A stretch of 55,239 bases of DNA from Syntrophales bacterium (GTDB taxonomy: Bacteria > Desulfobacterota > Syntrophia > Syntrophales > JACQWR01). The translations under genes were made by a program, and so were the position numbers. Shown one piece after another: positions 6,182-43,992 of this stretch (within the stretch, counting starts at the first letter, position 1; each line of letters begins with the position of its first letter). The notes under the pieces are model-generated. The model searched no databases, was not told the origin of the DNA, and saw only the letters and a list, made by a program, of their open reading frames with translations. The stretch covers positions 1 through 55,239 of the forward strand of contig DATESZ010000155.1 in the NCBI GenBank assembly GCA_035283845.1. The letters are read 5' to 3'.

Positions 6182-6294
6182 TTCACCTGAAAATACCTTT
6201 CACCCTCCCCCTCACCCCCTCCCCTTGAGGGAGGGGGAAGGGGGAGGGGTAATTTTCATTATCCTTTGTGACGGACACCGTCATGAGGGTTTCA
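6182..6294. repeat. 113-bp palindromic intergenic element, copy 1 of type A
   Basis: Identical except for one base to 19297..19409. Contains a C-tract/G-tract hairpin (ccctccccctcaccccctcccc ttga gggagggggaagggggagggg) and a tgacgg-aca-ccgtca hairpin. Its right end overlaps the stop codon of the MinD-like gene. Confidence 0.85.
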
Positions 6295-7518
6295 TTCGAA
6301 AAGATACCTTTTTTCTATCTGGTTCAGCCTGAAGGCCATCCTTTCCATTTCCCGGCTTTGCGGCAAGTCCGGAGTCAGGGCCACAAAAGGCGTGATCCGG
6401 TTGACGGAGTTGCTGATATCGTCGCTGGTGGCCATGGTTCCCAGCACCTGATTGTCAATATGCAGGTACTGCCTTACCACCTTCTGAAGGTTTTGAACGA
6501 TCTTCATATCCTGGCTGCTGTTAACCATGTTGCCGACAATCTGGAAGCGTTGGCGGGCCAGTACGGCGGCAGCGGTGCGGCGGGCCGGATGAGCCTCCTC
6601 CAGAGCGCCGATGAGGCCATGGAGCTTCTGAGGATCGGAGCCGGCCTGGTCCAGAAGGCAGGCGAATCCGCCGGAGCGTTTCAGGTCATGGAGGAATGCA
6701 GACTTGATAAAACCATAGGCATTCTGCAGCGAGGTCACCTGAGGCGTCACGACGATGATTTTATCGCCGGCCAGCCGGTACAGATCGAGCGTTTCATCGT
6801 TCATGCCGGCGCCCAGGTCGATCACCAGACAATCGGCATCGACCTGCCCGAGGTCGGAAAGCAGACGCGACATTTCCTTAGCCAGGAAGGCATCCACCTT
6901 GTTCTGGGCGCCGCAAATCAGGCGCAGACCATGAAAGGCGGTGGCAACCGTGATCTCGTCAAGGGAACGCTCTTTACGCAGGTAATCCTCTAAAGAGCTC
7001 TCAATCCTGGTTATGCCCAGCAGGGTATTGCAGTTGCAATTACCGAAATCGCCGTCCAGGAGGGCGACTTTGTGCTGCAGGTGCGATAAAGTAAGCGCCA
7101 GGTTCACCGCTACGATCGTTTTGCCGACGCCGCCCTTACCCCCGCCCACGGCAATCGTTTGACCGGCCTTATTGCGAACCACGTCAGGAGAAAGCGCCTC
7201 CCCATGTCCCTCAACTTCATCCAGGCCGACCTCCGGCCGGACAGGTCGAGGTCTGTTCTTTTCATTTTTAGTGACCCAGATCCTGACAACCCGGCCACCC
7301 TCCTCGGCGCTCTCATACCGTACGAGCGCACCGCTTAGCTCTATCTCGTTTCCTGTCGCAGGGTCCCGGAGAAAGAAAGCGAAATTGCCTGCACACAACC
7401 TCTGGATGGTCTCGTCAGAAAAACCTTCAGCACACTCAACTTGCAGACCGGCGGCCGATATGGACGCCACCTCATACTGGTGGCCGTCAAAGACAAACGT
7501 GGCCTTGATCAGATCCAT
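6292..7518 (-). CDS. MinD/ParA-family P-loop ATPase with an N-terminal beta-rich (PilZ-like?) extension
   Basis: Deviant Walker A GGGKGGVGKT, A' LLDGDFG, Walker B CLVIDLGAG. The ~110-aa N-terminal extension has SISAAGLQVE, which resembles the PilZ DxSxxG patch, but no RxxxR motif is present. It starts 1 nt after the stop of the mamK-like gene. Confidence 0.75.
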   Translation of the reverse strand: MDLIKATFVFDGHQYEVASISAAGLQVECAEGFSDETIQRLCAGNFAFFLRDPATGNEIELSGALVRYESAEEGGRVVRIWVTKNEKNRPRPVRPEVGLDEVEGHGEALSPDVVRNKAGQTIAVGGGKGGVGKTIVAVNLALTLSHLQHKVALLDGDFGNCNCNTLLGITRIESSLEDYLRKERSLDEITVATAFHGLRLICGAQNKVDAFLAKEMSRLLSDLGQVDADCLVIDLGAGMNDETLDLYRLAGDKIIVVTPQVTSLQNAYGFIKSAFLHDLKRSGGFACLLDQAGSDPQKLHGLIGALEEAHPARRTAAAVLARQRFQIVGNMVNSSQDMKIVQNLQKVVRQYLHIDNQVLGTMATSDDISNSVNRITPFVALTPDLPQSREMERMAFRLNQIEKRYLFE

Positions 7519-7519
7519 C

Positions 7520-8665
7520 CTACACCGAGGCGCTGATCAGCGCACCCATGGCGGTCGCCCGCAGCGGGTCGTGGGCCAGGCGCACCGACGATATTGCTAT
7601 TGGCATGGGGACCTCCTTCATGAGCTGCTCGAACTTAACCTTGAACCCATTCGGCAGGCATGTGCCGCCGGCCAGGACGATCGGTATGGCCTGATTGAGC
7701 CGGGGCAGTCTGTCGGACCGGGAGAGAATGCCTGACAATGTGGAAAGAAGGGTCATGATCAGGTCTTCATAGTAGATAATGAGCGCATTCTCCAGATTGC
7801 TCCTGGGGGTCCTGGCAAAGTCGAGGGATTCTTCCTTGATGATCCGCACGCGGTTTACCGTTTCGTGCATCATCCGGGCGACGGACGCGTCAACATCATC
7901 CCCGCCCCGGCTGATGCTGAAAACAAGTACCGGCACGGACAAGAAGGAGAAGCAGATATTGCACATGCCGGCGCCCATGCTGATACCGATGCCGGTGAAA
8001 TTGTCGCCGGCGAGCTCAGAAATCACAACCGCCATCCCTTCATTGACGCTTTTGGGCTTGTAACCCATCCCTGCCAGGTACTTCTTCAGTATGCCTTCGT
8101 GGAAAACCAGATCCGCCTCGAATCCCACCTCCGGGGCCGGCACGCTGAAGCACAGGGGCTGAGCCATTTCTGCCGCCTTGGGAAGCACCAGGTTGATAAT
8201 TTCCTTCATGGCCGGGATGGCGTAGATCTCCTCCGACGTAATAAGACCCTTTTTCATGGGGCGGCGGATTTCACTGTTAAAGATATTCGCAAACTGCAAT
8301 GCGTCATAGCCCAGGACCACGGTTTCATCTTTTATCTTGGTATGGGCCATCTGGCTCTTCACCAGCATATCCTTCAGGAACTGGGTTTCTGAAACGGCGA
8401 TAAAAGCGTTCATCTGATCGGCGCCGATCTGGTCGTCCTGTTTTATGCTGACGATCCGGCTGGTTCCGATATCGAGGCCGTACGCTTTTTTAGCCACGGA
8501 TCTGCTTTCCACATTCTTCCCCGATTCCTTCAGACCATCGACCTTGGTGATCAGCTTGTCCAGCGCAAGAGGATCAACCGTCTCACTGGCTCCCTGCAAC
8601 AGGTCATCCAAAACATTTTTATCATCCTTGTCGTCATCATTTTCTTCAACCATGTCACCCTCCAT
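7520..8665 (-). CDS. mamK: MamK-like actin-family filament protein
   Basis: Actin-fold motifs LDIGTSRIV (phosphate 1), GIGISMGAGMCNI (phosphate 2) and IVLAGGTCLP (adenosine). Size and magnetosome-gene context fit MamK. Confidence 0.7.
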   Translation of the reverse strand: MEGDMVEENDDDKDDKNVLDDLLQGASETVDPLALDKLITKVDGLKESGKNVESRSVAKKAYGLDIGTSRIVSIKQDDQIGADQMNAFIAVSETQFLKDMLVKSQMAHTKIKDETVVLGYDALQFANIFNSEIRRPMKKGLITSEEIYAIPAMKEIINLVLPKAAEMAQPLCFSVPAPEVGFEADLVFHEGILKKYLAGMGYKPKSVNEGMAVVISELAGDNFTGIGISMGAGMCNICFSFLSVPVLVFSISRGGDDVDASVARMMHETVNRVRIIKEESLDFARTPRSNLENALIIYYEDLIMTLLSTLSGILSRSDRLPRLNQAIPIVLAGGTCLPNGFKVKFEQLMKEVPMPIAISSVRLAHDPLRATAMGALISASV

Positions 8666-8681
8666 TCTTTATAAGTTTTAT

Positions 8682-8792: not shown

Positions 8793-9167
8793 TTACAATT
8801 TATATCTTGACAGGTCGATGATTGTCAAATTATCACTTTCGAGGCCGGATTTCATCATCTCCACCATGTCCCTGCCGAAGTGCATATAGAACTCCCTTTT
8901 GTCAGCCTCATCAATTAGGGCATCGCTTTTTACGAGGCTCATAATCGTAATTTTCCCCTCGGCGCCGCCTGCTTCGTACGGAGAGTCTTGGAGGCCCGAA
9001 CATATACTCCGAACGTAGGCGACGTATTTCCCGGCGTAGTACATCGTGTCGGCGAGGATATTGTTCAGATAGCCTCCAACCTTGCCTATGCCCTTAATGG
9101 CCTCATAGACGAAATCAGATGACTGCATCGAGGCAAACCCTTCCATTTCCGCTGCTGCTGTTTCCAT
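8793..9167 (-). CDS. Hypothetical 124-aa protein following the ParM-like gene
   Basis: ORF in the operon series with no recognisable motif. The Gly-rich N-terminal patch IKGIGKVGGYLNNIL resembles patches in other cluster proteins. Confidence 0.4.
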   Translation of the reverse strand: METAAAEMEGFASMQSSDFVYEAIKGIGKVGGYLNNILADTMYYAGKYVAYVRSICSGLQDSPYEAGGAEGKITIMSLVKSDALIDEADKREFYMHFGRDMVEMMKSGLESDNLTIIDLSRYKL

Positions 9168-9196: not shown

Positions 9197-10258
9197 TTAA
9201 CTCAACATGTAATCGGCCCCTTCCAGCACCGTATATATTGGCTGCTTCTCAATATGGACATCATAAAAGCGGTAACCGCCTTCCTCCAGGGATAAGCGTA
9301 GAATATCACCATTGAGGGATGCACCGCCGCCCGTTACCAGCAGCATGGCCGGCCACTCCACCCGGTTCGTATAATAAGAGGTCAGAGTATCCGTCGTGAA
9401 CCTGGTGAACTCCTTGTTCAAGTCCCAGCGCACATTTTCCATGACCAGTGAAATATCATATAAATAGCCCGCCATATCCCCTTCGTTGTCGCGACGGACT
9501 TCAACGTTCTCGCAACCGAGCTCAATCTGCTTCACGAGCCACAAAAAATGATTGTCGGCTATGTTCTCTTCCGCAAAGAGCCGCACGATCTTTTCGTAAT
9601 AAAAGGATACTCCACAATCTACAGTCTGGAACAACTCCACACCCTTATCGCCATCAACCACATAGAGCTTTGTTTTATTATAGCCCACATCGACGACCAG
9701 GGCCGTCGTAAAGTCCCTGATATTTTTTTCCAGGAATCCCGCTACCGCATCGCCGGAAGGCAGCAGCGAAAGACGGATCGTTGCCTCCTTCCTGAGGCGG
9801 CGTTTATCATAACCGCGAAACGCGGAGATGTCCACCTTCTTATTGATCAGCGCCGCCCCAATTTCCTTAAAAACCTGCGCCCTGTGGTAATTGTCGACAA
9901 CCACGCTGATTTCCAGGTCATCATTGTTGTCGGCATAATCAAAGATGATCTTTTTCAGAATCAGGAGGGCCCTGCCGGCGCCGAGCCCCTCGCCATCGAA
10001 GGCGCTCATGATCTGTTCCAATCTCAGAGAGCTGCTGCAGTCATAACCGACTGTATAAAGATCTCCCTCGTGCTCGTAATACATCCGGTCCTTATCAATA
10101 TCGCCGGCCCGACTGACCAGCGTGGGGAAAAAGCCTCTTCCGTAAAATTGATAGGGCTGATCATCCCGGTCTCCCCCTCCATTTTCAGAGGCTCGGCGCA
10201 TTACGTACACCTTGGTATAAAAACATCCCGCATCAACCAGTATTTTTTTCACATACAT
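9197..10258 (-). CDS. Actin-fold ATPase, ParM/Alp-like (second actin paralogue)
   Basis: ILVDAGCFYTKVYV (phosphate 1), ALVVDVGYNKTKLYVV (phosphate 2), MLLVTGGGASLNG (adenosine). Confidence 0.65.
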   Translation of the reverse strand: MYVKKILVDAGCFYTKVYVMRRASENGGGDRDDQPYQFYGRGFFPTLVSRAGDIDKDRMYYEHEGDLYTVGYDCSSSLRLEQIMSAFDGEGLGAGRALLILKKIIFDYADNNDDLEISVVVDNYHRAQVFKEIGAALINKKVDISAFRGYDKRRLRKEATIRLSLLPSGDAVAGFLEKNIRDFTTALVVDVGYNKTKLYVVDGDKGVELFQTVDCGVSFYYEKIVRLFAEENIADNHFLWLVKQIELGCENVEVRRDNEGDMAGYLYDISLVMENVRWDLNKEFTRFTTDTLTSYYTNRVEWPAMLLVTGGGASLNGDILRLSLEEGGYRFYDVHIEKQPIYTVLEGADYMLS

Positions 10259-10297: not shown

Positions 10298-10801
10298 TTA
10301 GAACTTGATTTCTTTCGGCGCGCTTGCTTTGCGCAATTCGTGATAGCTTTTTCTTTTCTTCTGAGAGACAGCGGTCTTATCCACTTCCAGAAGCTTGGCG
10401 GCATCCTTCGGGGAAAACTCCCTCAAGTCTCCGCCGGCTAAAGGCGCCGCCAGACCTCTGCTCTGAAGATCCCTGAGCATGCCCCGTATTTCCCTGATCT
10501 CCTGATGGAGGGCGGTAGATCCGTAATCACCAGGCGCGGCCTGTCGCTCCTCCAGGAGGCTGTCTAAATGGTCAATCCGGTCCTGGGTGGTTTCATAGAG
10601 CTTGCCCGTGACGATTCGTTCCACCAGGTTTTGAAAAATCAGGAGCGGATCACTGCCCTTGCGGCGGCTTTTATCCACGAGTTTTAAGTACAGTTTCAGA
10701 ACGAGCTTCAGCACTTCCTTGGCGCCCTCGGGATGACATTGGGAGAACTTCTCCATAAGAGTCCTCAAATCTTCATCCACTACCAGGTAATAAACTCCCA
10801 T
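10298..10801 (-). CDS. Hypothetical 167-aa protein following the larger actin-like gene
   Basis: ORF in the operon series. Helical, with a basic C-terminus (KTAVSQKKRKSYHELRK). No family recognised. Confidence 0.4.
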   Translation of the reverse strand: MGVYYLVVDEDLRTLMEKFSQCHPEGAKEVLKLVLKLYLKLVDKSRRKGSDPLLIFQNLVERIVTGKLYETTQDRIDHLDSLLEERQAAPGDYGSTALHQEIREIRGMLRDLQSRGLAAPLAGGDLREFSPKDAAKLLEVDKTAVSQKKRKSYHELRKASAPKEIKF

Positions 10802-10854: not shown

Positions 10855-12180
10855 CTAATCCGGCTTAGCCGTGGCCGGTGCATTGTCTTGCCCCGGTTTA
10901 CCCCGATCCGGACCTGTCTCTTCCGTATCCTTGAGAATCGTCCGGATTTGGAAGCGGGTCTCGACCTCCTTGCCCAGGGTCAGCGCAATATGGTCGCGCG
11001 CCAGCAGCATGAATCCCACGCAGTTGATATAGCGCGGGTCAATCCCAATCTTATTGGGATGGATGATGCGTTCGTCCAGAACAGTTTCGGGCCAGCCGAA
11101 AAAGGCGCCGATCTCGCTTTTGATGGTATCATAAAGCAGGTGCGCACCGCCGCCGATGATAGTAAAATACTCAATGGTCTGGCCTTTTTGCGACAGCGCC
11201 GTGATGTCACGGGCCACATGTTCCATGATGCGTCGGCCCATAAACAGCGATTCCTGCGCCAGCAACCGGCTGAAATCATAAACACCGATGCCGGGAATCT
11301 CGATTTTGAAATCCTTCAGGGGAAGCCGCTGCATGATCCGCTGCTCGGGGATCTTGAACTTCTGCTCACTGGACTCAAAAATGGTTTCACTGATATTTTT
11401 CGTAATGGTGTAGATGCCTTCTGTTAGGGAATCGGCCAGGTTGATTTCAGCCTCATTGTCGATTATGGGCAGCTTGATCCAGGTGCCGTGACCGATATCG
11501 ATGATGTAGGTGTTGTACACATCCATATTGTACTTGCTGAACAAGAGCGCCATGTAAGCGCCGTAGGCCTGGTACTGCATCACCGAAAAATCAAGCTGGA
11601 TGCTGATCTCTCGCACTTCACCCGTGGCCACGTTCTTGGCCTTGATGGCAACGAACTTTTTTTCGCCGTCGGCAGCGAGATGTTCTTTCATGTAGGCCAG
11701 GAATTTCTCCAGAATATTCTCGCCATGGCGCACGGTGATGCCAAAGCCGAAGCCTGCCTCTTCAATGGGCTTGCCTTTTTTTTCCATCTCCTGGCTAAGC
11801 AGAAACAGGCCGGCCTTGATGGCGAGAAAGGCGTCATCATAGTTCTGGATAAGCCCCTTGTGGGTGAACCAGCTCGTTTTCTCGGAACTTCTCGTCATGG
11901 CGCCCACATATCGCCAGGCGTTCCGACTGTCGTCAAAAATTGCCAGGTTCTTGATCCAGCGATTATCGGAAGACCTGTTCATCATGCGCCAGCTCTTTTC
12001 CATATTGGCCGAAAGGGCATCGCCGACCACGGACGTAAAAATGACTATCGTGTCGTCACAGCAAAACTTGCTTGCCGAGGTCCCCATTTCGCCTCCTATG
12101 GCAACGCATTTGCTTAAATCGGGCCCGGCAATCGCCTCCTTCCCATTTAATTCACTATTTAACTCTCCGCTCGTTGTCAT
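10855..12180 (-). CDS. Actin-fold ATPase, ParM/Alp-like (possibly mad28-type)
   Basis: VAIGGEMGTSASK (phosphate 1, degenerate), YIIDIGHGTWIKL (phosphate 2), FTIIGGGAHLLYD (adenosine). 441 aa. Confidence 0.6.
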   Translation of the reverse strand: MTTSGELNSELNGKEAIAGPDLSKCVAIGGEMGTSASKFCCDDTIVIFTSVVGDALSANMEKSWRMMNRSSDNRWIKNLAIFDDSRNAWRYVGAMTRSSEKTSWFTHKGLIQNYDDAFLAIKAGLFLLSQEMEKKGKPIEEAGFGFGITVRHGENILEKFLAYMKEHLAADGEKKFVAIKAKNVATGEVREISIQLDFSVMQYQAYGAYMALLFSKYNMDVYNTYIIDIGHGTWIKLPIIDNEAEINLADSLTEGIYTITKNISETIFESSEQKFKIPEQRIMQRLPLKDFKIEIPGIGVYDFSRLLAQESLFMGRRIMEHVARDITALSQKGQTIEYFTIIGGGAHLLYDTIKSEIGAFFGWPETVLDERIIHPNKIGIDPRYINCVGFMLLARDHIALTLGKEVETRFQIRTILKDTEETGPDRGKPGQDNAPATAKPD

Positions 12181-24108: not shown

Positions 24109-24153
24109 AATCCCTTATCTCAACTGAACTGGTCGCCTTCTTAGTAAGCATAT

Positions 24154-33128: not shown

Positions 33129-33362
33129 CTACTCGTCTTTTTTCTTTGTTGTCGGCTCAGTTGCCTTTGGCTTGTTGTTTCTCTCCATGAGAGTTGCTCT
33201 CAGTCCCGTGTTTTTTATGCCCGCCAGCAGGGCTATGATCCCAAAAAACAGAAGCACCAGAGGAAATATCGCAATGATGACGTCCACGGTATACCACCAG
33301 TAGGTCACCAGTCCCCAGATCCCCAAGCATATCGCGACAAGAGCGAAAACGATGTTTATCAT
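33129..33362 (-). CDS. mamI: MamI-like small two-TM protein
   Basis: 77 aa. ALVAICLGIWGLVTYWWYTVDVIIAIFPLVLLFFGIIALLAGI matches my recollection of the MamI pattern (LGxWGL..WWW, then a second TM helix). Positioned between mamA and mamE. Confidence 0.6.
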   Translation of the reverse strand: MINIVFALVAICLGIWGLVTYWWYTVDVIIAIFPLVLLFFGIIALLAGIKNTGLRATLMERNNKPKATEPTTKKKDE

Positions 33363-36716: not shown

Positions 36717-37585
36717 TTTGTGCAGGTTCCTCTGTTCCTGTGAGGGGGCGGCGTACCCATGCGGATATTCGGAGCAACCTTTGTCAGGGCATCGCCCTGG
36801 TCTTTCAGCAGTTGATTGGAATTCAGGGCCGTCCTGGAAATAGCATGGCATCTGTCACATGGCCCAAGGTAGCCGTGGGGGCTTTTTGCTGTGGCCAGGA
36901 TCATCGGCGCCGCCTCCATCTGAGCTATTCCCAAAGCCTCGGTACTGAAAACCAAAATGTTTATATATTTGCCGCCACGGTAAACTGATAGGTTTACCCG
37001 GTTTGACTGGGCCAAATCTTTGGTCGCCAGCCGGAACGACTTAAGGTCATTTATCTTCCTGTCGTTCACTGCCGTGATGACATCCCCCGCATAGAGCCCC
37101 GCTTCCGCCGAGAGCAGCGTCACTTCATCGATCAGGACCCCCGCCACGTCCGGCGGTATGAAATTTGCCTCAGCGATCGCCGGTGTTAAAGGAATGACCT
37201 CCATCCCGATCCAGTGTCCTTCCTGTAGCGTCTTATCCGGGAAGGCGATAGGCGGCAGAGGGACGTTCTGATCCGGCTGGACCGGAAGAATGATATCCCC
37301 ATTCCCCTGCGGCGGATCGAGCTGGTTCGGCTGCTGAACCGTATTCTCATGGTTTTGCTGTATACGCTGGTTGATGGGGTCCTGTTTCTGGACAACGGGT
37401 CCGGCCAAAGCAACAATATTGGGGTCTTTCGGAGTCACCTCGTCCCAGTCCTTTTCCTTTATTGCTGACGGCGCCATTGAGGAAAGGGGTGTGGCCCCTC
37501 TCAAATAAACGAAATAGACGTACAGGAACGCACAAACCAGCAGTATAACTACAACCGGATGGGCGATACGCGTAAGATGTTTCAT
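36698..37585 (-). CDS. mamP: MamP-like protein: TM, PDZ domain, two magnetochrome CXXCH motifs
   Basis: PDZ-like AEAGLYAGDVITAVNDRKINDL. SPHGYLGPCDRCHAI and PPHRNRGTCTKCHVV both fit PHxxxGxCxxCH. Confidence 0.85.
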   Translation of the reverse strand: MKHLTRIAHPVVVILLVCAFLYVYFVYLRGATPLSSMAPSAIKEKDWDEVTPKDPNIVALAGPVVQKQDPINQRIQQNHENTVQQPNQLDPPQGNGDIILPVQPDQNVPLPPIAFPDKTLQEGHWIGMEVIPLTPAIAEANFIPPDVAGVLIDEVTLLSAEAGLYAGDVITAVNDRKINDLKSFRLATKDLAQSNRVNLSVYRGGKYINILVFSTEALGIAQMEAAPMILATAKSPHGYLGPCDRCHAISRTALNSNQLLKDQGDALTKVAPNIRMGTPPPHRNRGTCTKCHVVL

Positions 37586-37588: not shown

Positions 37589-37747
37589 TTAAGCTTTTTC
37601 CCCTGCTGGCATTAGCATGCTGTTTAGACCCTCGGCAAACTTAGCCTCGAATTTTTCTGTAAGTTCTGGTTTTGTTCTATTGAGTAGCTCATAAACAAGA
37701 GCCCCAACAAAAACCGCCATAAAAACCCCCACCAGTATCTTCGACAT
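37589..37747 (-). CDS. Small (52-aa) single-TM protein, not in the ORF track
   Basis: Own translation: MSKILVGVFMAVFVGALVYELLNRTKPELTEKFEAKFAEGLNSMLMPAGEKA. GGAGG lies about 7 nt upstream of the ATG. Its double TAA TAA stop abuts the mamP ATG. Confidence 0.45.
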   Translation of the reverse strand: MSKILVGVFMAVFVGALVYELLNRTKPELTEKFEAKFAEGLNSMLMPAGEKA

Positions 37748-37810: not shown

Positions 37811-38116
37811 TCAGCCCCGCGCCGTCATCTTTTTCTCCTCAAAAGACGTAATGGATCTATCGATCTTTTCCGTAGCAGCAACCAGTTCCACTAACATATC
37901 ATCCCTTTTCAAGTCTGCCAGACCCGCTTTTTTCACCTGGATTATTCTTTTGCCGATCAGGCTTAAACACTCCCGCCTCTTCTTTTTGAGGCCCCGTATA
38001 TCGTATGTTAAAACAATGCCCTTGGCGCTTTTTTTTGCAGAAGCAACGGTGTATAACAAGGCATCCACAAATATATCCCCCAGGTGCTGCATCTTATACC
38101 TGACATCTCTGCTCAT
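37811..38116 (-). CDS. Hypothetical 101-aa basic protein with a degenerate RxxxLxxIG motif
   Basis: KKKRRECLSLIGKRIIQV resembles the RIxxLYxEIG segment of three larger cluster proteins. Confidence 0.4.
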   Translation of the reverse strand: MSRDVRYKMQHLGDIFVDALLYTVASAKKSAKGIVLTYDIRGLKKKRRECLSLIGKRIIQVKKAGLADLKRDDMLVELVAATEKIDRSITSFEEKKMTARG

Positions 38117-38134: not shown

Positions 38135-38341
38135 TCATTTTTTCCTGTTCATAAGATAAAAGATGCCAATCGCGCTTATCACTCCGACCACCATACTTAT
38201 AACTATGATAAGGCTGAGTTCCAATTGAAATGGATTCCCGATGAGTATTTTAATGGGCACGGCCGTCCGATTCTGGTCGAGAAAAACAACCACCAGAAAC
38301 AAAAACATCAACGTTACAAGGTAGCTTGATTTTAATTTCAT
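38135..38341 (-). CDS. Small two-TM membrane protein (LapA/DUF1049-like pattern)
   Basis: 68 aa with two hydrophobic helices and a C-terminal basic tail (YLMNRKK). Confidence 0.45.
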   Translation of the reverse strand: MKLKSSYLVTLMFLFLVVVFLDQNRTAVPIKILIGNPFQLELSLIIVISMVVGVISAIGIFYLMNRKK

Positions 38342-38355: not shown

Positions 38356-38586
38356 TTATTTTAAGTCTTTTGCGCCGTACAAGAATCCCAGCGCGCCGCC
38401 TGTCAGACCGAGCGCCTTGAAGGTCAAAATTGCCGGAATAGCGACTTCAGCCATTGCTGCTACCGCGAGAGCTCCTATCCCCAGGCTAATCCCCACACCG
38501 AGACCCACGGCGGTTTTACCTGCCAGCATGGCAACTTTATAAACAGAATCTCCACCTTTTTCATCATAATCGCGCGCCATATTCAT
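38356..38586 (-). CDS. Small Gly/Leu/Ala-repeat membrane protein
   Basis: GLGVGISLGIGALAVAAMAEVAIPAILTFKALGLTGGALGFLYG. This GL-dipeptide-rich hydrophobic segment is reminiscent of the LG-repeat magnetosome proteins (Mms6/MamG/MamD class), by pattern only. Confidence 0.45.
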   Translation of the reverse strand: MNMARDYDEKGGDSVYKVAMLAGKTAVGLGVGISLGIGALAVAAMAEVAIPAILTFKALGLTGGALGFLYGAKDLK

Positions 38587-38666: not shown

Positions 38667-39473
38667 TCACTGCGGTTTGACCGTTGCCCCATCGTTCAGT
38701 TGCAATAAAAGCAGCTTTTTGGACAAAGGCACCTTATCCCCATACTCGAGCAATTTCTTTTCAAAATAGGGCAATTTCCCTGTTTCCTTCAAACAAATGC
38801 CGATCAAAAGATCGCTCAGGTCGGAGATTTCTTGCAGGTAAAAGAAGGATCCGCCTGTTTCATTCGCCATCCAGCGAAAGTTACCCTCCGTCTCGGATAT
38901 ATTGTTGCATAAAATTGGATAGATTTTGATCCCCTTGAGCTTGAGCGCCTTCACCTCTTCACGGTAATCGCGCATTTTTGTGCACTCTTTGATCCCGTCC
39001 AACACCCCGTGGGGCGGTTTGTCGCCAATCAGAATGATCACTTTGGGCGCCGCTTTATCCCAGGTAAATGCCACCGCTTCGCGCAAAGCGCACTCCACCG
39101 CTTCCGGTCCGCCTCCGCCCTCTCCGATATACAGTCCGGGTGAACGCATAAAGCCGATGATTTCTTTTCTATTGAACGTCAGCGGCAGGATCTTGGTCAG
39201 ATAATATTCATCTTCCCCTTCATCACCATGATCCTTGTAAGCGACGCAACCCATCCTGATCTTTGGCGAATACTCCAGGACGTTTTCTATGATCCTTATG
39301 ATATTTTGTTTTACCTCATCGATGTAAGGGTCCATACTGCCAGTCGTGTCAATCATGAATAGGACATCGAGGGACGAATCGGCGTAGAAGCGGCCTTCCT
39401 TCAGCAGCTTCTCTTTTTCAGCTATCTTCTGAAGAATTTTCTCTTTTCTGTCAGTCAACCCATCAGTGCTCAT
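38667..39473 (-). CDS. von Willebrand factor type A (vWA) domain protein, first gene of the minus-strand series
   Basis: MIDAS-like VLFMIDTTGSMDPYI, later VIILIGDKPPHG. About 235 bp of non-coding DNA lies upstream, before a divergent plus-strand gene. Confidence 0.7.
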   Translation of the reverse strand: MSTDGLTDRKEKILQKIAEKEKLLKEGRFYADSSLDVLFMIDTTGSMDPYIDEVKQNIIRIIENVLEYSPKIRMGCVAYKDHGDEGEDEYYLTKILPLTFNRKEIIGFMRSPGLYIGEGGGGPEAVECALREAVAFTWDKAAPKVIILIGDKPPHGVLDGIKECTKMRDYREEVKALKLKGIKIYPILCNNISETEGNFRWMANETGGSFFYLQEISDLSDLLIGICLKETGKLPYFEKKLLEYGDKVPLSKKLLLLQLNDGATVKPQ

Positions 39474-40504: not shown

Positions 40505-41326
40505 TCACAATTCAATCATGTTGTTTTCGATAAGCCATCTTTCCTGAAAAGCGCGCCTTGCCGCCCAACCAACATCATTAATGAACCAGGCGTTAACGGA
40601 CCCCCCGACAGCGGCGCCGATGGCCGGGATAGCCTGCATGACCTTTCGCTCGGTGATATTGACTCCCAGTTGTCTTCCTAAACTTTTCATGCCAATAAGC
40701 ACAGATTCTTTAACTAATTGCTGTTGCGCAGCCTTCTCTGCTACCGTCTTCAGCGTCTGTTTGGCGATCATCACATCTATCGCCCGCAGTATTTTGACCG
40801 CATCGGCTTTTTCACTTGCCGTGTTGGCGCCGGCGGCGGATAAAAGCGCTAAAACAAAGTACCTGCCTTTTTCATCTTTGTTCTTGTATCCATAACAGAG
40901 GCCTATTTTGTGAATTGTCCTCAAGGCGAAAGTAATGATGAAAGGAATATCCAGCACCAATCCGTAGATCCCCCACATGCCTGAACCAACGCCTTCTGCA
41001 GATGCCACGCCGATTGCCCAGTTGTGAATTTCATTGGCTAATTTATCTGACAGCATAAGGTCTTTTTTTTTCAATTCATAAATTTCCGACACCCCTCCTT
41101 TTCTCGTGACATCGCCTTCGTCGGCCAACCATTCCGCCACCGAACTTGTACCGCCGATGGCATCCCGGATGGCCGACTGAGGTACGACAGCTTGAATGAG
41201 CATGGATATCGGAAACATCACGCAACCTAACGCGGTGCCGACAACGCTCGGTTTTTCCTTACGCCATTCTTCTATCGCGCGTATCTGCTCCTTTTCATAT
41301 TCACCGGGGTTGCTCGTGATTGCCAT
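40505..41326 (-). CDS. EcsC-like family protein (tentative)
   Basis: GMWGIYGLVLDIPFIITFALRTIHKIGLCYGY and the surrounding helical layout resemble the EcsC-family core. Called by pattern recall only. Confidence 0.4.
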   Translation of the reverse strand: MAITSNPGEYEKEQIRAIEEWRKEKPSVVGTALGCVMFPISMLIQAVVPQSAIRDAIGGTSSVAEWLADEGDVTRKGGVSEIYELKKKDLMLSDKLANEIHNWAIGVASAEGVGSGMWGIYGLVLDIPFIITFALRTIHKIGLCYGYKNKDEKGRYFVLALLSAAGANTASEKADAVKILRAIDVMIAKQTLKTVAEKAAQQQLVKESVLIGMKSLGRQLGVNITERKVMQAIPAIGAAVGGSVNAWFINDVGWAARRAFQERWLIENNMIEL

Positions 41327-41372: not shown

Positions 41373-42035
41373 TTATATCTTCAATCCATAGATGCCCATG
41401 GCAATATCCTGTTCCAGGGCTATCTGGGTATTCTCAATCTGAATGACATAAGCGGGAAATTTTTGGCGGATTTTTATCTTTTTCCCGGGAGACACGCCAA
41501 AAGAAACCAGTTTGCCGATCAAGACCGGGTCAGCTTTTCTGATAAAGGATATTCTGACCTCATCGCCTATATCCAGGGAATCGAGAGATTTAACAAACGT
41601 TTTTACAGAATCTTCAGCCCTCTTGCAGCAATCCCCTTCCGGTATCGGGAAACCGTGGGGACATTCCCGCGGGTGGCCAAGCAAGGTGCAGATCGCCTCG
41701 GTAAGACCGGGCGCCAGTGTATGCTCATACTCGCAGGCCGACTCCTCCATTTCCCCAAACATCATCCCCAGGACATCGACAAGCAGCCTTTCGGCCAGTC
41801 TGTGCCTGCGTATGATAGGCTGCGCCTGCTCTTTTCCCTGGGCTGTGAGAGTGATCTCCGTGCCGCTTATTTTCACGAGGCCGCTTTTTTCCAGCTCCGA
41901 TAAGATTTCGTCATCCACAATATATCCATAGGCGCCCTCATGTTCCTTCAATACGTTTTCTACCGTGCATCTTCCCTTTTCCTCCAACGTCCAGACAGTC
42001 TCGATCGTTTCAGCCGTTACATCTACAATTTTCAT
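41373..42035 (-). CDS. DtxR-family metal-dependent regulator fused to a FeoA-like C-terminal domain
   Basis: Winged-helix N-terminus, dimerisation/metal region RRHRLAERLLVDVLGM...ESACEYEH, and a C-terminal SH3-like segment GDEVRISFIRKADPVLIGKLVSFGVSPGKKIKIRQ (FeoA pattern). Confidence 0.75.
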   Translation of the reverse strand: MKIVDVTAETIETVWTLEEKGRCTVENVLKEHEGAYGYIVDDEILSELEKSGLVKISGTEITLTAQGKEQAQPIIRRHRLAERLLVDVLGMMFGEMEESACEYEHTLAPGLTEAICTLLGHPRECPHGFPIPEGDCCKRAEDSVKTFVKSLDSLDIGDEVRISFIRKADPVLIGKLVSFGVSPGKKIKIRQKFPAYVIQIENTQIALEQDIAMGIYGLKI

Positions 42036-42045
42036 ATGCCACCCC

Positions 42046-43992
42046 TTAAAAAGAGAAATTATTCCACTGGAAAAAATAGTTCATGATTCCCCCGGTCATA
42101 ATGGCGCAGGCGGTAACGGAAAGAATAATGGCCAGTGCCTTCTTCGCTCCCTGTTCCTTGATAATGAGCAAGAAGTTTGCTACACAGGGGATAAAAAGTA
42201 TCGTGACAATCATCGCTACCACCAGTTGCCGATTATCCATGACGCCGGTGTCCACCAATTTTTTGAGCACTGCTATGCCTGCCTCTCCCCTGATGAAGCC
42301 CATAATCAGGGATTCGGCAAACTGCGGCGGCAGCCCCATAAAGCCTTTGACGACAGGCGCAAAGAAGTTCTCCAGATAAACCAAAAGACCGATCTTTTCT
42401 ACCAGAAAAAGTCCCAGCGCGCCGATGACGAACAGCGGCAGCGCCTCCCGGAGAAACAGCAGCGACCGGTAGGAAGTCTTTTTTATAATATTTTGCATGC
42501 TCGGAATGCGTATCGGAGGAATTTCCATGATAAAATAGGAAGGATCTACCGTCATCAGCCTGCTCAGGATAAAACCTGCGGCAATAGTAAGAGAAAAGAC
42601 AACCCCGAACACCACGAAAAAGGCAGCGAAAGAAACCTGCGCCAGAATAACCAAAATCATACTCAATTTTGCTGAACAGGGAATGCCCAGCGAAAGCAGA
42701 AAGATGGCGATAAACCGTTCTCTTTTGCTGTCCAGCACCCTGGTGGATAGTGTAGCCATGGTGACACAGGAAAAGCCGAGCACCATCGGCAGCACGGCCT
42801 TGCCGTTTAGACCTATTTTACTGAACAATCTGTTGAGCAGGATGGATAGCCGGGTAAAGTATCCCGAATCCTCAATAAAACCAAAGGTAAAGAAGAAAAC
42901 AACAATCACCGGTAAAACCAGGCCGAGAAGTGGAACAATCGCCATGGCGTAGAGACCGTACTCTCCCATAATAAGCTCCCTCGCCGGGGCGTATGGTATC
43001 ATTACCACGATATTATTAAGAAATGAGGCCACGACGAGGCCAAAAAAATCTTTCACTAAAAAGTCAACTAAATAACCTGCGGCAAATTTTCCCACAATAA
43101 AATACAGCACTACCAGCATGATAAAGAGGATCAGAAAACCGGCAATCGGAGTCAAGGCCATATTGCCTATCCTGTCTAATAACAGCGTGGAGGAAATTGG
43201 TGTGAAATAGATTGACTCGGTGAATACTGCTTCTGCCCAGGCATTGTTAGCCCGGTAAATAATCAGATCAAGTGGCTGGTACAGTGATTTCTTGGCCTCA
43301 GCCATGCCGCTCCGGGCGGCATCGTTATTATTGAGCGCGCTTATCTGCTGGGCCCAGCGTGCGGTCTCCTGCTCATCGGCAAGAGAGAAAAGCGACAAGG
43401 CCCGTTTTTTCCATTCCGGTTGCCTCTCGTCAGGCATAAGCGCCGTCAGACGCTGCATCGCATCTGTCAGAACGAAAGGCAACCGGGAGGGAAAGGATGG
43501 TATCCGGGCCGTGCCTAAGGCCGTAATAAGCGCGGCGATGCCAGCGCCTTCCGATGCCACCGTTTCGATTACGGAGGCGCCCAGCATATCTTCCAGTTTA
43601 TGCCGCTTGACCTTAATCCCCTTCTGGGCGGCTTCGTCAACCATATTCAAAACAAGCACCAGGGGAAGGCGAAATTCTGCCAACAATGCAGTAAGCGCCA
43701 ATGATCGTTTGATATTTTTTGCATCAGCGACTTGCACAACCAGGTCAGGCGTCTCGTCAATCAGGATATTCCGCGCCACCTTTTCATTATCAGCGTTGGA
43801 AAGCAGATTATACACGCCTGGAATATCAATTATTTCGATATTGTCCCCTTCGACCTTGAGGGCGCCTCTTTTGATCTCCACGACGGTGCCGGGGTGGGTG
43901 GAGATACTGACTCTGTCGTTGATCAAGCGGCTGAATACGGTGCTTTTACCGACATTCGGCAGGCCTAATAGCAAAACTCTCTTCAATATCAA
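42046..43992 (-). CDS. feoB: Ferrous iron transporter FeoB
   Basis: G1 LLGLPNVGKSTVF, G3 DIPGVY, G4 NMVD, followed by about 10 TM helices. Confidence 0.9.
   Translation of the reverse strand: MILKRVLLLGLPNVGKSTVFSRLINDRVSISTHPGTVVEIKRGALKVEGDNIEIIDIPGVYNLLSNADNEKVARNILIDETPDLVVQVADAKNIKRSLALTALLAEFRLPLVLVLNMVDEAAQKGIKVKRHKLEDMLGASVIETVASEGAGIAALITALGTARIPSFPSRLPFVLTDAMQRLTALMPDERQPEWKKRALSLFSLADEQETARWAQQISALNNNDAARSGMAEAKKSLYQPLDLIIYRANNAWAEAVFTESIYFTPISSTLLLDRIGNMALTPIAGFLILFIMLVVLYFIVGKFAAGYLVDFLVKDFFGLVVASFLNNIVVMIPYAPARELIMGEYGLYAMAIVPLLGLVLPVIVVFFFTFGFIEDSGYFTRLSILLNRLFSKIGLNGKAVLPMVLGFSCVTMATLSTRVLDSKRERFIAIFLLSLGIPCSAKLSMILVILAQVSFAAFFVVFGVVFSLTIAAGFILSRLMTVDPSYFIMEIPPIRIPSMQNIIKKTSYRSLLFLREALPLFVIGALGLFLVEKIGLLVYLENFFAPVVKGFMGLPPQFAESLIMGFIRGEAGIAVLKKLVDTGVMDNRQLVVAMIVTILFIPCVANFLLIIKEQGAKKALAIILSVTACAIMTGGIMNYFFQWNNFSF

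Follow-up and report, generated by a model that had tools for sequence, protein, structure and literature searches.

We found that positions 6292-43992 of the window, the 55,239-nucleotide stretch of DNA analysed here, very likely hold a functional magnetosome gene cluster, complete or nearly so, of the deep-branching, man-containing kind from a Syntrophales bacterium. Seven adjacent genes have seven magnetosome-specific NCBIfam models as their top matches, and the magnetosome identity is therefore far beyond chance. Furthermore, dN/dS ranges from 0.06 to 0.36 across 19 cluster genes, indicating purifying selection. A preliminary description had proposed that mam and mad-type genes, all co-directional, fill this interval; the models, the gene order and the selection bear this out, with every gene on the minus strand. 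Clusters of this kind are known, but this one has no MamK within the window and three other actin-like proteins in its place.

Core mam genes and the head of the operon

The mam operon runs in the order VWA, Gly-rich TM protein, Man2, Mad10, Man3, MamP, M, Q, B, A, I, E and Q-II, and is preceded in cluster order by FeoB, DtxR/FeoA and EcsC. A profile-HMM check of the open reading frames, suggested by the preliminary description, gave magnetosome-specific NCBIfam models as best matches for MamP, M, Q, B, A, I, E and Q-II.

36698-37585 (-), MamP, PDZ and two magnetochrome haem-binding motifs (NCBIfam MamP NF040965, 1.5e-63)
35808-36716 (-), MamM, CDF transporter (NF033615, 351 bits against a curated cut-off of 350)
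35254-35811 (-), MamQ-I, LemA family (NF040966, 9e-17; Pfam LemA, 1e-17)
34291-35184 (-), MamB, CDF transporter (NF033616 MamB, 222 bits; NF033615 MamM, 224 bits)
33546-34193 (-), MamA, TPR protein, 215 aa (NF040959, 4e-44)
33129-33362 (-), MamI, 77 aa, two TM segments, LGIWGLVTYWWY (NF040963, 3e-18)
31407-33116 (-), MamE, HtrA protease (NF040960, 4e-74; Trypsin_2 and PDZ)
30720-31397 (-), MamQ-II, LemA family (NF040966, 4e-28; LemA, 1e-40)
27792-28697 (-), MamO-Cter, stand-alone TauE-type transporter (Pfam TauE, 2e-47; NF040961 MamO C-terminus, 1e-8)

Every sequence feature of the preliminary description was recovered where it had been placed, and most proteins that it had picked out by their motifs could be named in this way. 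Its PDZ protein with two CXXCH motifs is MamP (CDRCH at residue 243, CTKCH at 288; Pfam magnetochrome PF18509, 1e-13, two stretches), and its HtrA protease is MamE, with a trypsin domain, one magnetochrome CXXCH (CCDCH at 343) and two PDZ domains. The 77-aa two-TM protein, the 215-aa TPR protein and the two LemA proteins are MamI, MamA, MamQ-I and MamQ-II, and the stand-alone TauE-type transporter is MamO-Cter, 49-78% identical across related clusters. Both CDF transporters have the N-terminal CxxC it had noted (CARC at 6, CASC at 59); with the MamB and MamM models at 222 and 224 bits, MamB was named by its place between MamQ and MamA. The MamM and MamA reading frames extend to 36851 and 34247, with likely starts at 36716 and 34193; the gene calls of an independent assembly, L023, are 302 aa for MamM and also 215 aa for MamA. 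A protein of L023 identical to MamI matches PF26391 MamI.

38667-39473 (-), cytoplasmic VWA-domain protein, heading the mam operon in this clade (Pfam VWA, 6e-11)
38356-38586 (-), clade-specific Gly-rich membrane protein, 76 aa (tblastn matches in L001-L004 and most metagenome loci)
38135-38341 (-), Man2, two TM segments (44% identical to L010:8505-8765, E 2e-13)
37811-38116 (-), Mad10-like protein (residues 1-69 45% identical to L010:8788-9408, E 7e-18)
37589-37747 (-), Man3-position protein, 52 aa, single TM segment (called as a gene in L023)

The VWA protein, in which no TM segment was found, is 73-90% identical in L001-L003 and 33 metagenome loci, where its gene invariably adjoins the small genes and mamP on the upstream side as far as sequence continues; a 34th locus (L063) has only a distant relative (32%). 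Its dN/dS is 0.105, and in Nitrospirota mamK occupies the position that it takes here. The 76-aa protein has no family match, and its gene is tandemly doubled in L031, L034, L040 and L044. Man2, termed MamL-like in the literature, is also kept in Nitrospirota loci, and its L010 match is the reading frame adjoining mamK in LBB02. The Mad10-like protein consists of the N-terminal domain only, the acidic/His-rich tail being missing. The names Man2, Man3, Mad10 and Mad24-27 reflect position and similarity to unannotated reading frames of annotated genomes rather than named reference sequences, those of Man2, with the gene order of PMC9376291, and of Mad10 being assigned by position. Man1, Man4-6, Mad2 and, in its usual place, Mad31 were not found in the cluster.

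The conserved 52-aa gene directly upstream of mamP had been overlooked in the preliminary description; tblastn matches it at this place in about 40 loci, including Nitrospirota, at 42-100% identity.

42046-43992 (-), FeoB ferrous-iron transporter, mad17-type position (TIGR00437 feoB, 374 bits against a cut-off of 316)
41373-42035 (-), DtxR-type metal-binding domain fused to FeoA, mad30-type position (Pfam Fe_dep_repr_C, 1e-24; FeoA, 7e-15)
40505-41326 (-), EcsC-family membrane protein (Pfam EcsC, 7e-41)

The FeoB and DtxR/FeoA pair reported earlier was recovered, FeoB with its FeoB_N, Gate and FeoB_C Pfam domains and the DtxR-FeoA fusion at 83-89% identity in L024 and L026. In the relatives L024-L026 feoB directly follows Mad29, and in L025 and L026 the EcsC gene comes after DtxR/FeoA. 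The EcsC protein weakly matches the mad31-position protein of LBB02 (24% identity, E 2e-5) and is possibly a relocated Mad31 relative.

Genes between MamQ-II and Mad23

MamQ-II is followed by a WD40-like protein, a J-domain-like protein and MamO-Cter, and then by ParA, ParB and three two-component genes.

29605-30723 (-), WD40-like beta-propeller, N-terminal TM segment, man4-6 position (weak WD40-family Pfam matches, best 9e-9)
28694-29584 (-), coiled-coil protein, C-terminal J-domain-like stretch with HPD motif (Pfam DnaJ, 0.009)
27033-27788 (-), ParA (AAA_31, 2e-53)
26392-27036 (-), short ParB, 214 aa (TIGR00180 parB, 124 bits against a cut-off of 58)
25416-26270 (-), acidic protein, N-terminus resembling the Mad23 N-terminal module (residues 4-109 matching residues 14-138)
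24154-25350 (-), REC-histidine kinase (Pfam, NCBIfam)
22762-24108 (-), cNMP-binding histidine kinase (Pfam, NCBIfam)
21862-22650 (-), REC-PAS (Pfam, NCBIfam)
20714-21766 (-), 350-aa protein with Mad23-N-like module (residues 151-266 matching the N-terminus of the L005 Mad23-position protein)

The WD40-like protein is 54-68% identical in L001, L003 and L043 and has no similarity to the man4-6 reading frames of LBB02. Homologues of the J-domain-like protein occur in L001, L003, L006 and L043, and a PDB Hsp40 match (0.043) over residues 248-291 weakly suggests a C-terminal J-domain. The ParA start overlaps the 3′ end of the TauE gene, embedding ParAB in the operon in an arrangement that L023 shares; L047 instead has its ParA and ParB (88% and 72% identical) ahead of the VWA gene, about 5.4 kb away from it. 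The three signalling genes (21862-25350), at 41-42% GC against about 50% in adjacent DNA, are also present in L023, and homologues (48-53% identity) flank the L011 cluster. ParA/ParB and these genes are inserted behind MamO-Cter in this genome in particular. The acidic protein matches the proteins at the Mad23 position in L005 and L007 (Nitrospirota), with homologues in L001 and L047, and the 350-aa gene directly follows MamO-Cter in L003.

The mad block and its actin-like proteins

19411-20724 (-), Mad23, HEAT-repeat protein (HEAT_2, 4e-26)
18023-19168 (-), coiled coil, mad24 position (weak SMC/Rad50-type matches)
17416-18063 (-), coiled coil, mad25 position (weak SMC/Rad50-type matches)
16550-17350 (-), coiled coil, mad26 position (weak SMC/Rad50-type matches)
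14544-16550 (-), AAA+ protein, single Clp/Hsp100 NBD1 ring domain and unique 400-aa N-terminus (ClpB, 3e-94, residues 397-650)
12218-14524 (-), receiver domain and long repetitive coiled coil (Response_reg, 1e-4)
10855-12180 (-), ParM-like actin-fold ATPase, 441 aa (AF2 pLDDT 84.8)
10298-10801 (-), partner gene behind the first ParM-like gene, 167 aa (position kept in L024-L027, 49-81% identity)
9197-10258 (-), second ParM-like actin-fold ATPase, 353 aa (AF2 pLDDT 86.2)
8793-9167 (-), partner gene behind the second ParM-like gene, 124 aa (kept in L024-L027)
7520-8665 (-), Mad28, actin-like, 381 aa (Pfam Volactin, 5e-77; NCBIfam MamK, 4e-5)
6292-7518 (-), Mad29, MinD/ParA-type ATPase, extra N-terminal domain (MinD, 2e-22; Pfam ParA, 9e-18)

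This block follows the two-component genes and opens, as described earlier, with a HEAT-repeat protein and coiled-coil proteins. The Mad23 reading frame extends to 20937, with a likely start at 20724; Mad23 is 33% identical (E 1e-44) to the gene adjoining MamO-Cter in L005 and 44% to the HEAT gene of the Oligoflexia MAG L027, such HEAT genes adjoining MamO-Cter or Mad29. In L027 the HEAT gene is followed by three genes to which the three coiled-coil proteins are 29%, 34% and 48% identical; in L024 and L026 the identity is 73-84%. The Clp-type AAA+ protein (PDB ClpB match, 1e-76; 54% identical in L027) is probably Mad27, an ATPase-containing protein that comes next after mad26 (PMC9840458, PMC9145555). 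The receiver coiled-coil gene holds a 207-bp repeat (13064-13633, 2.8 copies, 91% matches), and its orthologues vary in length (654 and 956 aa).

The preliminary description had seen a MamK-like actin with further paralogues. Three actin-fold proteins are indeed present; the MamK label did not hold. MamK is the usual chain-building actin, and neither the window nor any of 41 related contig stretches encodes one. We rejected it for the 381-aa protein, whose Volactin match (5e-77) compares with 4e-5 for MamK and whose phosphate-2 motif, ISMGAG, has the SxGxG form that is a Mad28 signature (PMC10653835). An hhalign comparison of Mad28 with MamK gave a probability of 95.6% (E 1e-8), and Mad28 is 45-54% identical to partial reading frames cut at the ends of the Nitrospirota loci L014 and L017. 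In L017 a ParA-type reading frame that follows the mad28 fragment at a distance of about 0.6 kb is 31% identical to Mad29, and in L027 a ParA-type gene two genes beyond mad28 reaches 41%.

The other two actins are ParM-like, and the structure models of both are confident. Foldseek placed the 441-aa model, with DxGxGT and GGGA motifs, closest to Ta0583, ParM, Alp7A and CorM (E 1e-16 to 1e-13), and the protein has counterparts of 64-70% identity in MTB MAGs of Oligoflexia and Bdellovibrionota; the 353-aa model matched Ta0583 and R1 ParM best (E 3e-15), with 75 homologues only, all from this contig type. Neither the 167-aa nor the 124-aa partner protein has a family match (dN/dS 0.23 and 0.22), and we hypothesize that they are candidate filament-to-cargo adaptors.

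Source, integrity and proposed function

MamP and the flanking amidohydrolase both have matches of 90% identity or more that carry the name 'Syntrophales bacterium', which points to an uncultured Syntrophales (Thermodesulfobacteriota) bacterium, represented by a MAG, as the owner. A contig chimera of two organisms is unlikely because in the independent ENA assembly L023 the genes stand in identical order, starting at the small gene ahead of mamP and ending with 20714-21766, ParAB and kinases included. What counts against a magnetosome cluster is the lack of MamK, counted among eight universal core genes (PMC9840458), throughout the window and all 41 related stretches, and the lack in the cluster of Man1, Man4-6, Mad2 and a Mad31 in its usual place. 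The seven specific models and the gene order nevertheless favour the magnetosome cluster.

The mam operon resembles Nitrospirota man-type clusters: MamP, M, Q, B, A, I, E, Q-II and MamO-Cter stand in the order typical of them, and man3, mad10 and man2 lie upstream as in LBB01/LBB02 (PMC9376291) and loci L004-L017. The mad block resembles MamK-less Oligoflexia/Bdellovibrionota clusters; it is 63-87% identical in L024-L026, recognisable in L027, and mostly common to public Oligoflexia and Syntrophales MAGs. By gene content the cluster is man-containing and deep-branching: the mad genes of the preliminary description stand, whereas a mad-only affiliation does not, man-type genes also being present. 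A described magnetotactic Syntrophales species, Ca. Belliniella magnetica LBB04, has man2/man3/mad10 without mad2/mad31 and bullet-shaped magnetite magnetosomes by FISH-TEM (PMC9376291).

On the established family roles in Magnetospirillum and Solidesulfovibrio magneticus RS-1, MamI, Man2 (MamL-like), MamQ and MamB would shape the magnetosome membrane, and protein sorting and processing would fall to MamA and the MamE protease. Fe(II) would be supplied by FeoB together with FeoA and by the MamB/MamM CDF pair, the magnetochrome haems in MamP and MamE may adjust the balance of Fe(II) and Fe(III) for magnetite, and the TauE-type MamO-Cter may help transport or nucleation. Mad10, Mad23-26 and Mad28 would arrange the crystals in the cell.

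The accessory content is, as had been remarked, rich (ParA/ParB, three two-component genes, VWA, Clp-type AAA+, ParM-like pairs). Compared with the textbook cluster, MamK is not in the window, a VWA protein stands at the operon head, and the organisation module consists of Mad28, two ParM-like actins with small genes, a Clp-type AAA+ protein, a receiver coiled coil and the ParA-like Mad29. The cluster thus adds a member to a known kind, and its cytoskeletal module is of moderate interest. Collectively, the organism apparently carries a working gene set for intracellular magnetic iron crystals; judged from these genes, it would produce magnetosomes, probably with crystals of bullet-shaped magnetite.

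Core mam genes and the type of the cluster

From 1096 to 47889 every long reading frame is on the minus strand. When the ORFs at 27.8-37.6 kb were compared with NCBIfam and Pfam, magnetosome-specific models came out as the best matches for a run of adjacent genes, with NCBIfam Mam models as the top match for seven of them, the core mamA, B, E, I, M, P and Q being clustered. With the exception of MamM, the scores of the Mam models fell under the equivalog cut-offs, as expected for a distant lineage. The preliminary description had recognised a mam cluster by CXXCH motifs in a PDZ protein and an HtrA protease, a CxxC in each of two CDF transporters, a motif in a 77-aa protein, a nearby FeoB and DtxR/FeoA pair and a HEAT protein followed by coiled-coil proteins, and we found each of these elements in place.

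Genes of the cluster recognised by family models and motifs (minus strand; mam genes at 27.8-37.6 kb)
MamP: NCBIfam NF040965, 1.5e-63; two Pfam magnetochrome stretches (PF18509, 1e-13); CXXCH at residues 243 and 288
MamM: NCBIfam NF033615, 351 bits against a curated cut-off of 350
MamA: NCBIfam, 4e-44
MamI (77 aa): NCBIfam, 3e-18; carries the motif LGIWGLVTYWWY
MamE: NCBIfam, 4e-74; trypsin and PDZ domains; CXXCH at residue 343
MamQ, MamB and a second MamQ: magnetosome-specific NCBIfam or Pfam models as best matches
Both CDF proteins (MamB, MamM): CxxC close to the N-terminus
27792-28697: stand-alone TauE transporter, which matches the MamO C-terminus as well (MamO-Cter)
41.4-44.0 kb: FeoB and a DtxR-FeoA fusion
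16.5-20.9 kb: HEAT protein and the coiled-coil proteins after it

Of the features that define a magnetosome gene cluster, those that can be read from the sequence are all here except mamK, and of those that define the man-containing type all but man1, man4-6, mad2 and mad31. Its category is unchanged: it belongs to a deep-branching type of magnetosome gene cluster that is already known.

The small genes were named by the gene order of Ca. Magnetominusculus LBB02 (L010), which runs ...mamP, man3, mad10, man2, mamK, man1 (PMC9376291). The names Man2, Man3, Mad10 and Mad24-27 are positional. The ORFs at the man2, mad10 and man3 positions, directly upstream of mamP, are 44-52% identical to their LBB02 counterparts.

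Further genes of the mam region (minus strand)
40505-41326: EcsC protein, beside DtxR/FeoA
38667-39473: cytoplasmic VWA-domain protein
38135-38341: man2 position; 44% identical to the two-TM ORF adjoining mamK in LBB02
37811-38116: mad10 position; 45% identical to the N-terminal 69 residues of the LBB02 ORF, whose protein has a long acidic, His-rich tail besides this shared part
37589-37747: man3 position; 52-aa single-TM ORF
29605-30723: WD40-like protein
28694-29584: coiled-coil protein with a J-domain-like C-terminal stretch

The 52-aa ORF is probably man3: some 40 loci, including ones from Nitrospirota, have it immediately before mamP, at 42-100% identity. It is shorter than the usual ORF-length cut-offs and had been missed in the preliminary description. 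Further upstream of these three genes are those for a Gly-rich 76-aa membrane protein and the VWA protein, both limited to the window's clade except for one Gly-rich homologue in a Nitrospirales locus (L004). LBB02 ORFs from the positions of man1, man4-6, mad2 and mad31 found no match in the window. The only exception is a weak match (24%, E 2e-5) between the LBB02 ORF at the mad31 position and the EcsC protein, and Mad31 may be an EcsC-family member that was relocated in the window's clade.

The WD40-like gene and the gene after it were considered as Man4-6 and rejected, since no similarity between either of them and the Man4-6-position ORFs of LBB02 could be detected. The second of them, between the WD40-like gene and MamO-Cter, carries an HPD motif ('AFHPDRF') in its J-domain-like stretch, which scores weakly (Pfam DnaJ, 0.009; PDB Hsp40, 0.043). 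Together with a Clp-type AAA+ protein encoded in the mad block, this protein hints at a chaperone theme. A PDB sequence search with the VWA protein and the J-domain-like protein returned no useful match.

Compared with the Nitrospirota clusters of the man type (Ca. Magnetomonas LBB01, Ca. Magnetominusculus LBB02, Ca. Magnetobacterium), the window shares the order man2-mad10-man3-mamP-M-Q-B-A-I-E-Q-II ... mamO-Cter-mad23, at protein identities of 41-60%. Unlike them, it is without mamK, man1, man4-6, mad2 and a mad31 in the usual place, it has VWA, Gly-rich TM, WD40-like and J-domain-like genes, ParAB and kinases as extras, and its mad28 and mad29 are linked to the cluster, whereas in the Nitrospirota they are far away.

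Actin-like proteins and the mad block

Downstream of Mad23 the order is coiled coils (mad24-26), AAA+, receiver-coiled coil, two ParM-like pairs, Mad28 and Mad29.

Genes of the mad block (minus strand)
Mad23: the HEAT protein, named from its resemblance to HEAT genes in L005 and in the Oligoflexia MAG GCA_015232355.1 (L027)
Mad24-26: positional, with coiled-coil matches; 29-48% identical to the trio that follows the HEAT gene in L027
AAA+ (probable Mad27): a single Clp/Hsp100 NBD1 with a unique 400-residue N-terminus; ClpB, 3e-94; PDB ClpB, 1e-76
12218-14524: receiver-coiled-coil protein
10855-12180: ParM-like actin, 441 aa
10298-10801: small conserved gene, 167 aa
9197-10258: ParM-like actin, 353 aa
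8793-9167: small conserved gene, 124 aa
7520-8665: Mad28, 381 aa
Mad29: MinD/ParA-type protein

The preliminary description had reported a MamK-like actin with further actin-like paralogues. The paralogues are real, being the two ParM-like proteins, but MamK itself is absent from the window: the supposed MamK-like actin at 7520-8665 is Mad28, with a Pfam Volactin match of 5e-77 against only 4e-5 for NCBIfam MamK. Its score with the MamK model NF040964 is 22.8 bits, under a cut-off of 400, and the products of 9197-10258 and 10855-12180 have no match to the NCBIfam MamK model. In hhalign comparisons with MamK, the family of the 441-aa protein reached a probability of 29% and the Mad28 family one of 95.6% (E 1e-8); judged from these profiles, the Mad28 family is only a distant relative of MamK. 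NCBIfam, tblastn with Nitrospirota MamK proteins and hhalign rule out any of the three actins as MamK.

In Mad28 the phosphate-2 motif reads 'GISMGAG' (residues 227-233), and in the alignment of the Mad28 family S229 is nearly invariant and G231 and G233 are invariant. The replacement of DxGxG by SxGxG in this motif sets Mad28 apart from MamK (PMC10653835). Partial ORFs truncated at the ends of two Nitrospirota loci (L014, L017) are 45-54% identical to the window's Mad28.

As a PDB sequence search gave no useful match for the three actins, fold prediction was needed. The AlphaFold models of the 441-aa and 353-aa actins have pLDDT values of 84.8 and 86.2, and the best structural matches of both (Foldseek, E 1e-16 to 1e-12) are Ta0583, several ParM, Alp7A and CorM. 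With the motifs DxGxGT/GGGA and DAGxxxTK/DVGxxxT/GGGA read from the sequences, both proteins are predicted to have a ParM-type actin fold with intact nucleotide-binding motifs. Each ParM-like gene is followed by a small conserved gene without a family match, as parR follows parM in the ParMRC systems (R1 ParM/ParR, Alp7A/R, CorM/R), and by this analogy we hypothesize that the small genes might encode filament-to-cargo adaptors. Unlike those systems, the window's pairs have no sequence similarity to known ParM or ParR, and they sit in a magnetosome cluster, not on a plasmid. The 441-aa family has 210 members; those in Oligoflexia and Bdellovibrionota MAGs from magnetotactic bacteria are 64-70% identical, and those in other phyla, at about 50% identity, lie outside magnetosome clusters (L028, L029). 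The 353-aa family has just 75 members, all on contigs of the window's type. In the literature searched there was no record of paired ParM-like actins with partner genes inside magnetosome clusters.

The mad block is present in three other Syntrophales-type contigs (L024-L026) at 63-87% identity, and it is recognisable gene for gene in L027 at 29-69% identity, comprising the AAA+ protein, a ParM-like protein (405 aa there, 441 aa here), a small gene, a second ParM-like protein (355 and 353 aa), another small gene, Mad28, Mad29 and Mad23-26. The Bdellovibrionota and Oligoflexia clusters (PMC13200544; L027) also resemble the window in keeping mad28 without mamK and in having FeoB and DtxR/FeoA nearby. 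By contrast, the mam genes of L027 are arranged otherwise and only 27-34% identical (MamQ, MamA, MamI), against 41-64% for the Nitrospirota and Nitrospinota counterparts, and L027 has no man genes, VWA or ParAB. Mad23 is nearer to L027 (44%) than to Nitrospirota (33%), and so is Mad29 (41% against 31%). Because the mam genes point to one side and Mad23 and Mad29 to the other, the cluster looks like a mosaic, by pairwise identities rather than trees, in which a mam operon of Nitrospirota type is combined with an organisation block of Oligoflexia/Bdellovibrionota type.

Within the receiver-coiled-coil gene, a 207-bp (69-aa) tandem repeat at 13064-13633 (-) spans 2.8 copies with 91% matches; orthologues of 654 and 956 aa indicate that the coiled-coil length varies among close relatives. 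In each of two further genes, 25416-26270 and 20714-21766 (-), a stretch of ~110-130 residues matches the module at the N-terminus of the Mad23-position proteins of Nitrospirota, giving three carriers of this module in the window. Directly after mad29, 1096-6163 (-) encodes a 1210-aa hybrid histidine kinase (GAF, coiled coil, receivers), CheR and a CheB without receiver domain; towards that end of the cluster, an MCP-like gene or a 1333-aa PAS-rich hybrid kinase is found in L024-L026.

Insertions, relatives and the integrity of the cluster

Five extra genes lie between MamO-Cter and the Mad23-like genes, encoding ParA, a 214-aa ParB, a REC-histidine kinase, a cNMP-binding kinase and a REC-PAS protein. 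The start of ParA overlaps the end of the TauE gene. The same interval holds an acidic protein with an N-terminus like that of Mad23 and homologues in the relatives L001 and L047. The kinase genes (21862-25350, -) have a GC content of 41-42% compared with ~50% nearby. A Thermodesulfovibrionia MAG (L011, 3632-5347) has homologues of these kinases, 48-53% identical, on the flank of its magnetosome cluster, and the same signalling module may have been linked to magnetosome clusters repeatedly. Such an insertion is missing from L003, where a homologue of the Mad23-N-like gene 20714-21766 comes directly after MamO-Cter, and in L005 and L006 the Mad23-type gene itself does.

In L047, ParA and ParB (88 and 72% identical) are next to an ABC transporter some 5.4 kb upstream of VWA, a position outside the operon that weakens the idea of ParAB as a designed part of the cluster. 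The window's ParB has 214 aa against 283 aa in L047; ParA and the N-terminal and HTH domains of ParB are present, and no canonical parS site with up to three mismatches was found in the 55 kb. FeoB, DtxR/FeoA and EcsC also differ in position between relatives, and we read these differing places, like those of ParAB, as probable local rearrangements. About 6 kb beyond the cluster is a tRNA-Arg(CCG) (50369-50445, +), the sole match of the Rfam and tRNA scans in the window, and after it 51563-53791 (+) encodes a 742-aa repeat protein in a region of ~65% GC, against a window mean of roughly 50%. This region may be an island boundary or foreign DNA.

A scan with MamP over one genome per species found no identical match. 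The best matches were at 68% in a SPRUCE Syntrophales MAG, at 63% in an uncultured deltaproteobacterium and at 55% in a MAG with the label Acidobacteriota; those in Nitrospirota and Nitrospinota were at 44-61%. In NCBI, the proteins with 90% or more identity to MamP and to the amidohydrolase encoded beside the cluster bear the name 'Syntrophales bacterium'. A 123-kb contig of 'Acidobacteriota bacterium ELA516' (L003, JBAXOX010000004.1) carries a VWA-type magnetosome cluster of 46-73% protein identity; its mam genes are 55-73% identical to the window's, and ParM-like genes are also indicated on it (P0190, P0335). We know of no described magnetotactic Acidobacteriota, and the ELA516 cluster could be either a real transfer or a mislabelled bin.

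The fall of GC to 41-42% at 22-26 kb and the variable positions of FeoB/DtxR/EcsC and ParAB among relatives could suggest an assembly or binning artefact in which parts of different organisms (mam operon, partition locus and mad block) were joined. We give this hardly any credence. In L023, an independent assembly of 37.8 kb from a different ENA sample, the genes are in identical order between the small gene ahead of mamP and 20714-21766, with ParA, ParB and the three signalling genes included, hence across the MamO-Cter/ParA/ParB/kinase junctions; this rules out a chimera. In addition, the mad-block gene 9197-10258 has homologues (P0290, P0335) whose longest contigs, of 26,990 and 123,396 bp, match the contigs of L001 and L003, so that linkage of the mam and mad blocks is very probable there too. 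It is also very unlikely that the genes are inherited or transferred remnants in an organism that no longer makes magnetosomes, even with a core gene, mamK, missing, ParB ~70 residues shorter than in L047 and unrelated-looking low-GC kinase genes inserted in the operon. Every reading frame is intact, the same genes are kept in dozens of distinct environmental variants, and pairwise comparison with orthologues in L043, L024 and L047 gave dN/dS values of 0.06-0.36 for the 19 genes tested, accessory ones included (VWA 0.105, ParM-like genes and partners 0.15-0.23, AAA+ 0.21, ParA 0.06), which argues for functional genes. Moreover, one member of the order is magnetotactic by FISH-TEM (PMC9376291). 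As to the mineral, greigite instead of magnetite as the product of this cluster seems highly improbable. The mam operon is nearest (41-64% identity) to clusters of Nitrospirota and Nitrospinota, the former known, to our knowledge, for bullet-shaped magnetite only, and a single set of mam genes is present. The Syntrophales bacterium LBB04 is described with magnetite (PMC9376291), although some Desulfobacterota make greigite and mad23-27 sets are known with both minerals (PMC9145555).

MamK and the positioning of magnetosomes

We found no MamK in the 55-kb window, either by tblastn with four Nitrospirota MamK queries (E <= 1) or by NCBIfam, and none in 41 related stretches (L001-L003 and L023-L063, excluding L028 and L029; tblastn E <= 1 or blastp E <= 1e-3), several of which were searched with 10-kb flanks. 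MamK is thus absent from L001-L003, from L023-L026 and from all 34 metagenome loci recovered with the VWA protein. In the Nitrospirota loci with enough upstream DNA, mamK is right beside man2 in all but L014 (Ca. Magnetocorallium paracelense XS-1), where 15-3221 holds a mad28 fragment, man1, man2 and mad10 with no mamK between man1 and man2. mamK has been described as a core actin-like gene in all magnetotactic bacteria analysed (PMC9840458). It is nonetheless not universal, since the described magnetotactic Bdellovibrionota all lack mamK and keep mad28 (PMC13200544). Over the window and the related stretches searched, MamK therefore appears to be lacking in a lineage of Thermodesulfobacteriota; this is uncertain, because mamK has been reported in a Syntrophales bin (10.1101/682252) and the search covered contig stretches.

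An ordinary MamK encoded elsewhere in the genome, with the MamK-less look arising from the view of a single contig, has in our estimate an even chance of being the explanation. The Syntrophales bin MAG_21602_syn32 (IMG metagenome 3300021602) has mamK next to 'man2' (bioRxiv 10.1101/682252), and L034, whose VWA protein is 90% identical to the window's, bears the Ga0194060 scaffold prefix of the 16S rRNA sequence of that bin. Furthermore, in many Desulfobacterota mamK and mad genes are scattered, mamK is described as being located outside the conserved cluster in this phylum (PMC9840458), and L041 demonstrates that relatives can have a second partial mam locus. Against a split cluster stand the searches of the window and the 41 stretches, the adjacency of mamK and man2 in Nitrospirota, L014 excepted, and the MamK-less, mad28-retaining clusters of all magnetotactic Bdellovibrionota (PMC13200544), whose mad block that of the window resembles. 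The second locus of L041 (4579-8663) is inverted and adjoins the main one; it consists of a Gly-rich gene, a mad10-like fragment, MamI, MamE with two CXXCH and a Mad2-like gene.

LBB04 (Ca. Belliniella magnetica) is the sole Syntrophales magnetotactic bacterium in the literature (PMC9376291; bioRxiv 10.1101/682252), with a GC content of 50.4%, bullet-shaped, disorganised magnetosomes by FISH-TEM, man2, man3 and mad10 present and mad2 and mad31 absent (PMC9376291; 10.1101/682252). The window fits this published description: it is from the same order, has ~50% GC, has man2, man3 and mad10, has no mad2 or mad31 between the mam genes, has mad23-26 not adjoining mamO-Cter and has mam genes of the Nitrospirota type. 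It differs in having the VWA gene at the place beside man2 and no mamK found, whereas the mamK OTU MamK_LBB_04 from LBB04's lake was assigned to Syntrophales via a related bin with mamK beside 'man2' (10.1101/682252). The LBB04 description lists part of the genes, and the window holds a contiguous 38-kb cluster including mad23-29.

By family roles, MamI, MamL/Man2, MamQ and MamB would form the membrane, MamA and MamE would sort proteins, MamB/MamM with FeoAB would supply iron and the magnetochrome proteins would control redox state. In Solidesulfovibrio magneticus RS-1 the chain-organisation module comprises Mad10, Mad20, Mad23, Mad25, Mad26, MamK and Mad28 (PMC12748827, PMC12713370), where chains are initiated with Mad10, subchains are assembled with Mad23/25/26, and placement according to curvature involves Mad28 (PMC9840458, PMC12748827, PMC12713370). 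Subchain assembly and positioning at the cell curvature are likewise the expected roles here, but RS-1 uses MamK together with Mad28, and the RS-1 accounts (PMC12748827, PMC12713370) leave ParM-like pairs, a long-N-terminus Clp-type AAA+ and VWA unmentioned. We hypothesize that filaments of the two ParM-like actins, coupled to cargo via the small partners and remodelled by the AAA+ protein, may assume part of the role of MamK.

Our furthest-reaching interpretation, which we put forward as possible though on balance doubtful, is that magnetosomes are positioned and segregated with no MamK in a Syntrophales clade that is represented by dozens of environmental contigs. The clade would use a distinct cytomotive machine made of Mad28, two ParM-like actins with one small adaptor apiece, a Clp-type AAA+ protein as remodeller, a coiled coil of variable length under the control of a receiver, ParA-type ATPases (Mad29 and here also ParA/ParB co-transcribed with MamO-Cter) and a cytoplasmic VWA protein in MamK's place, and the cluster would combine a Nitrospirota-type biomineralisation operon with a Bdellovibrionota/Oligoflexia-type organisation block.

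Magnetosome clusters are a model for the building and positioning of bacterial organelles, and MamK is treated as a universal part and a marker gene of magnetotactic bacteria. A Syntrophales cluster of the man-containing type has already been published; a VWA-headed operon and an apparent lack of MamK in a Thermodesulfobacteriota lineage were not recorded in the literature searched. The present sequence provides a contiguous 38-kb cluster for Syntrophales, where previously there was one partly described cluster, and its architecture is common in the metagenome assemblies searched, with 34 VWA-gene loci and hundreds of Mad28 variants. It also highlights conserved, unstudied cytoskeletal parts, namely the two ParM-like actins with their partner genes, the Clp-type AAA+ and the VWA protein. 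If whole genomes confirm the absence of MamK, this would be a second lineage in which MamK is dispensable. The comparisons support a modular exchange of cluster parts between phyla, and, if the furthest-reaching interpretation is true, the two functional halves of magnetosome clusters would have been exchanged independently between phyla.
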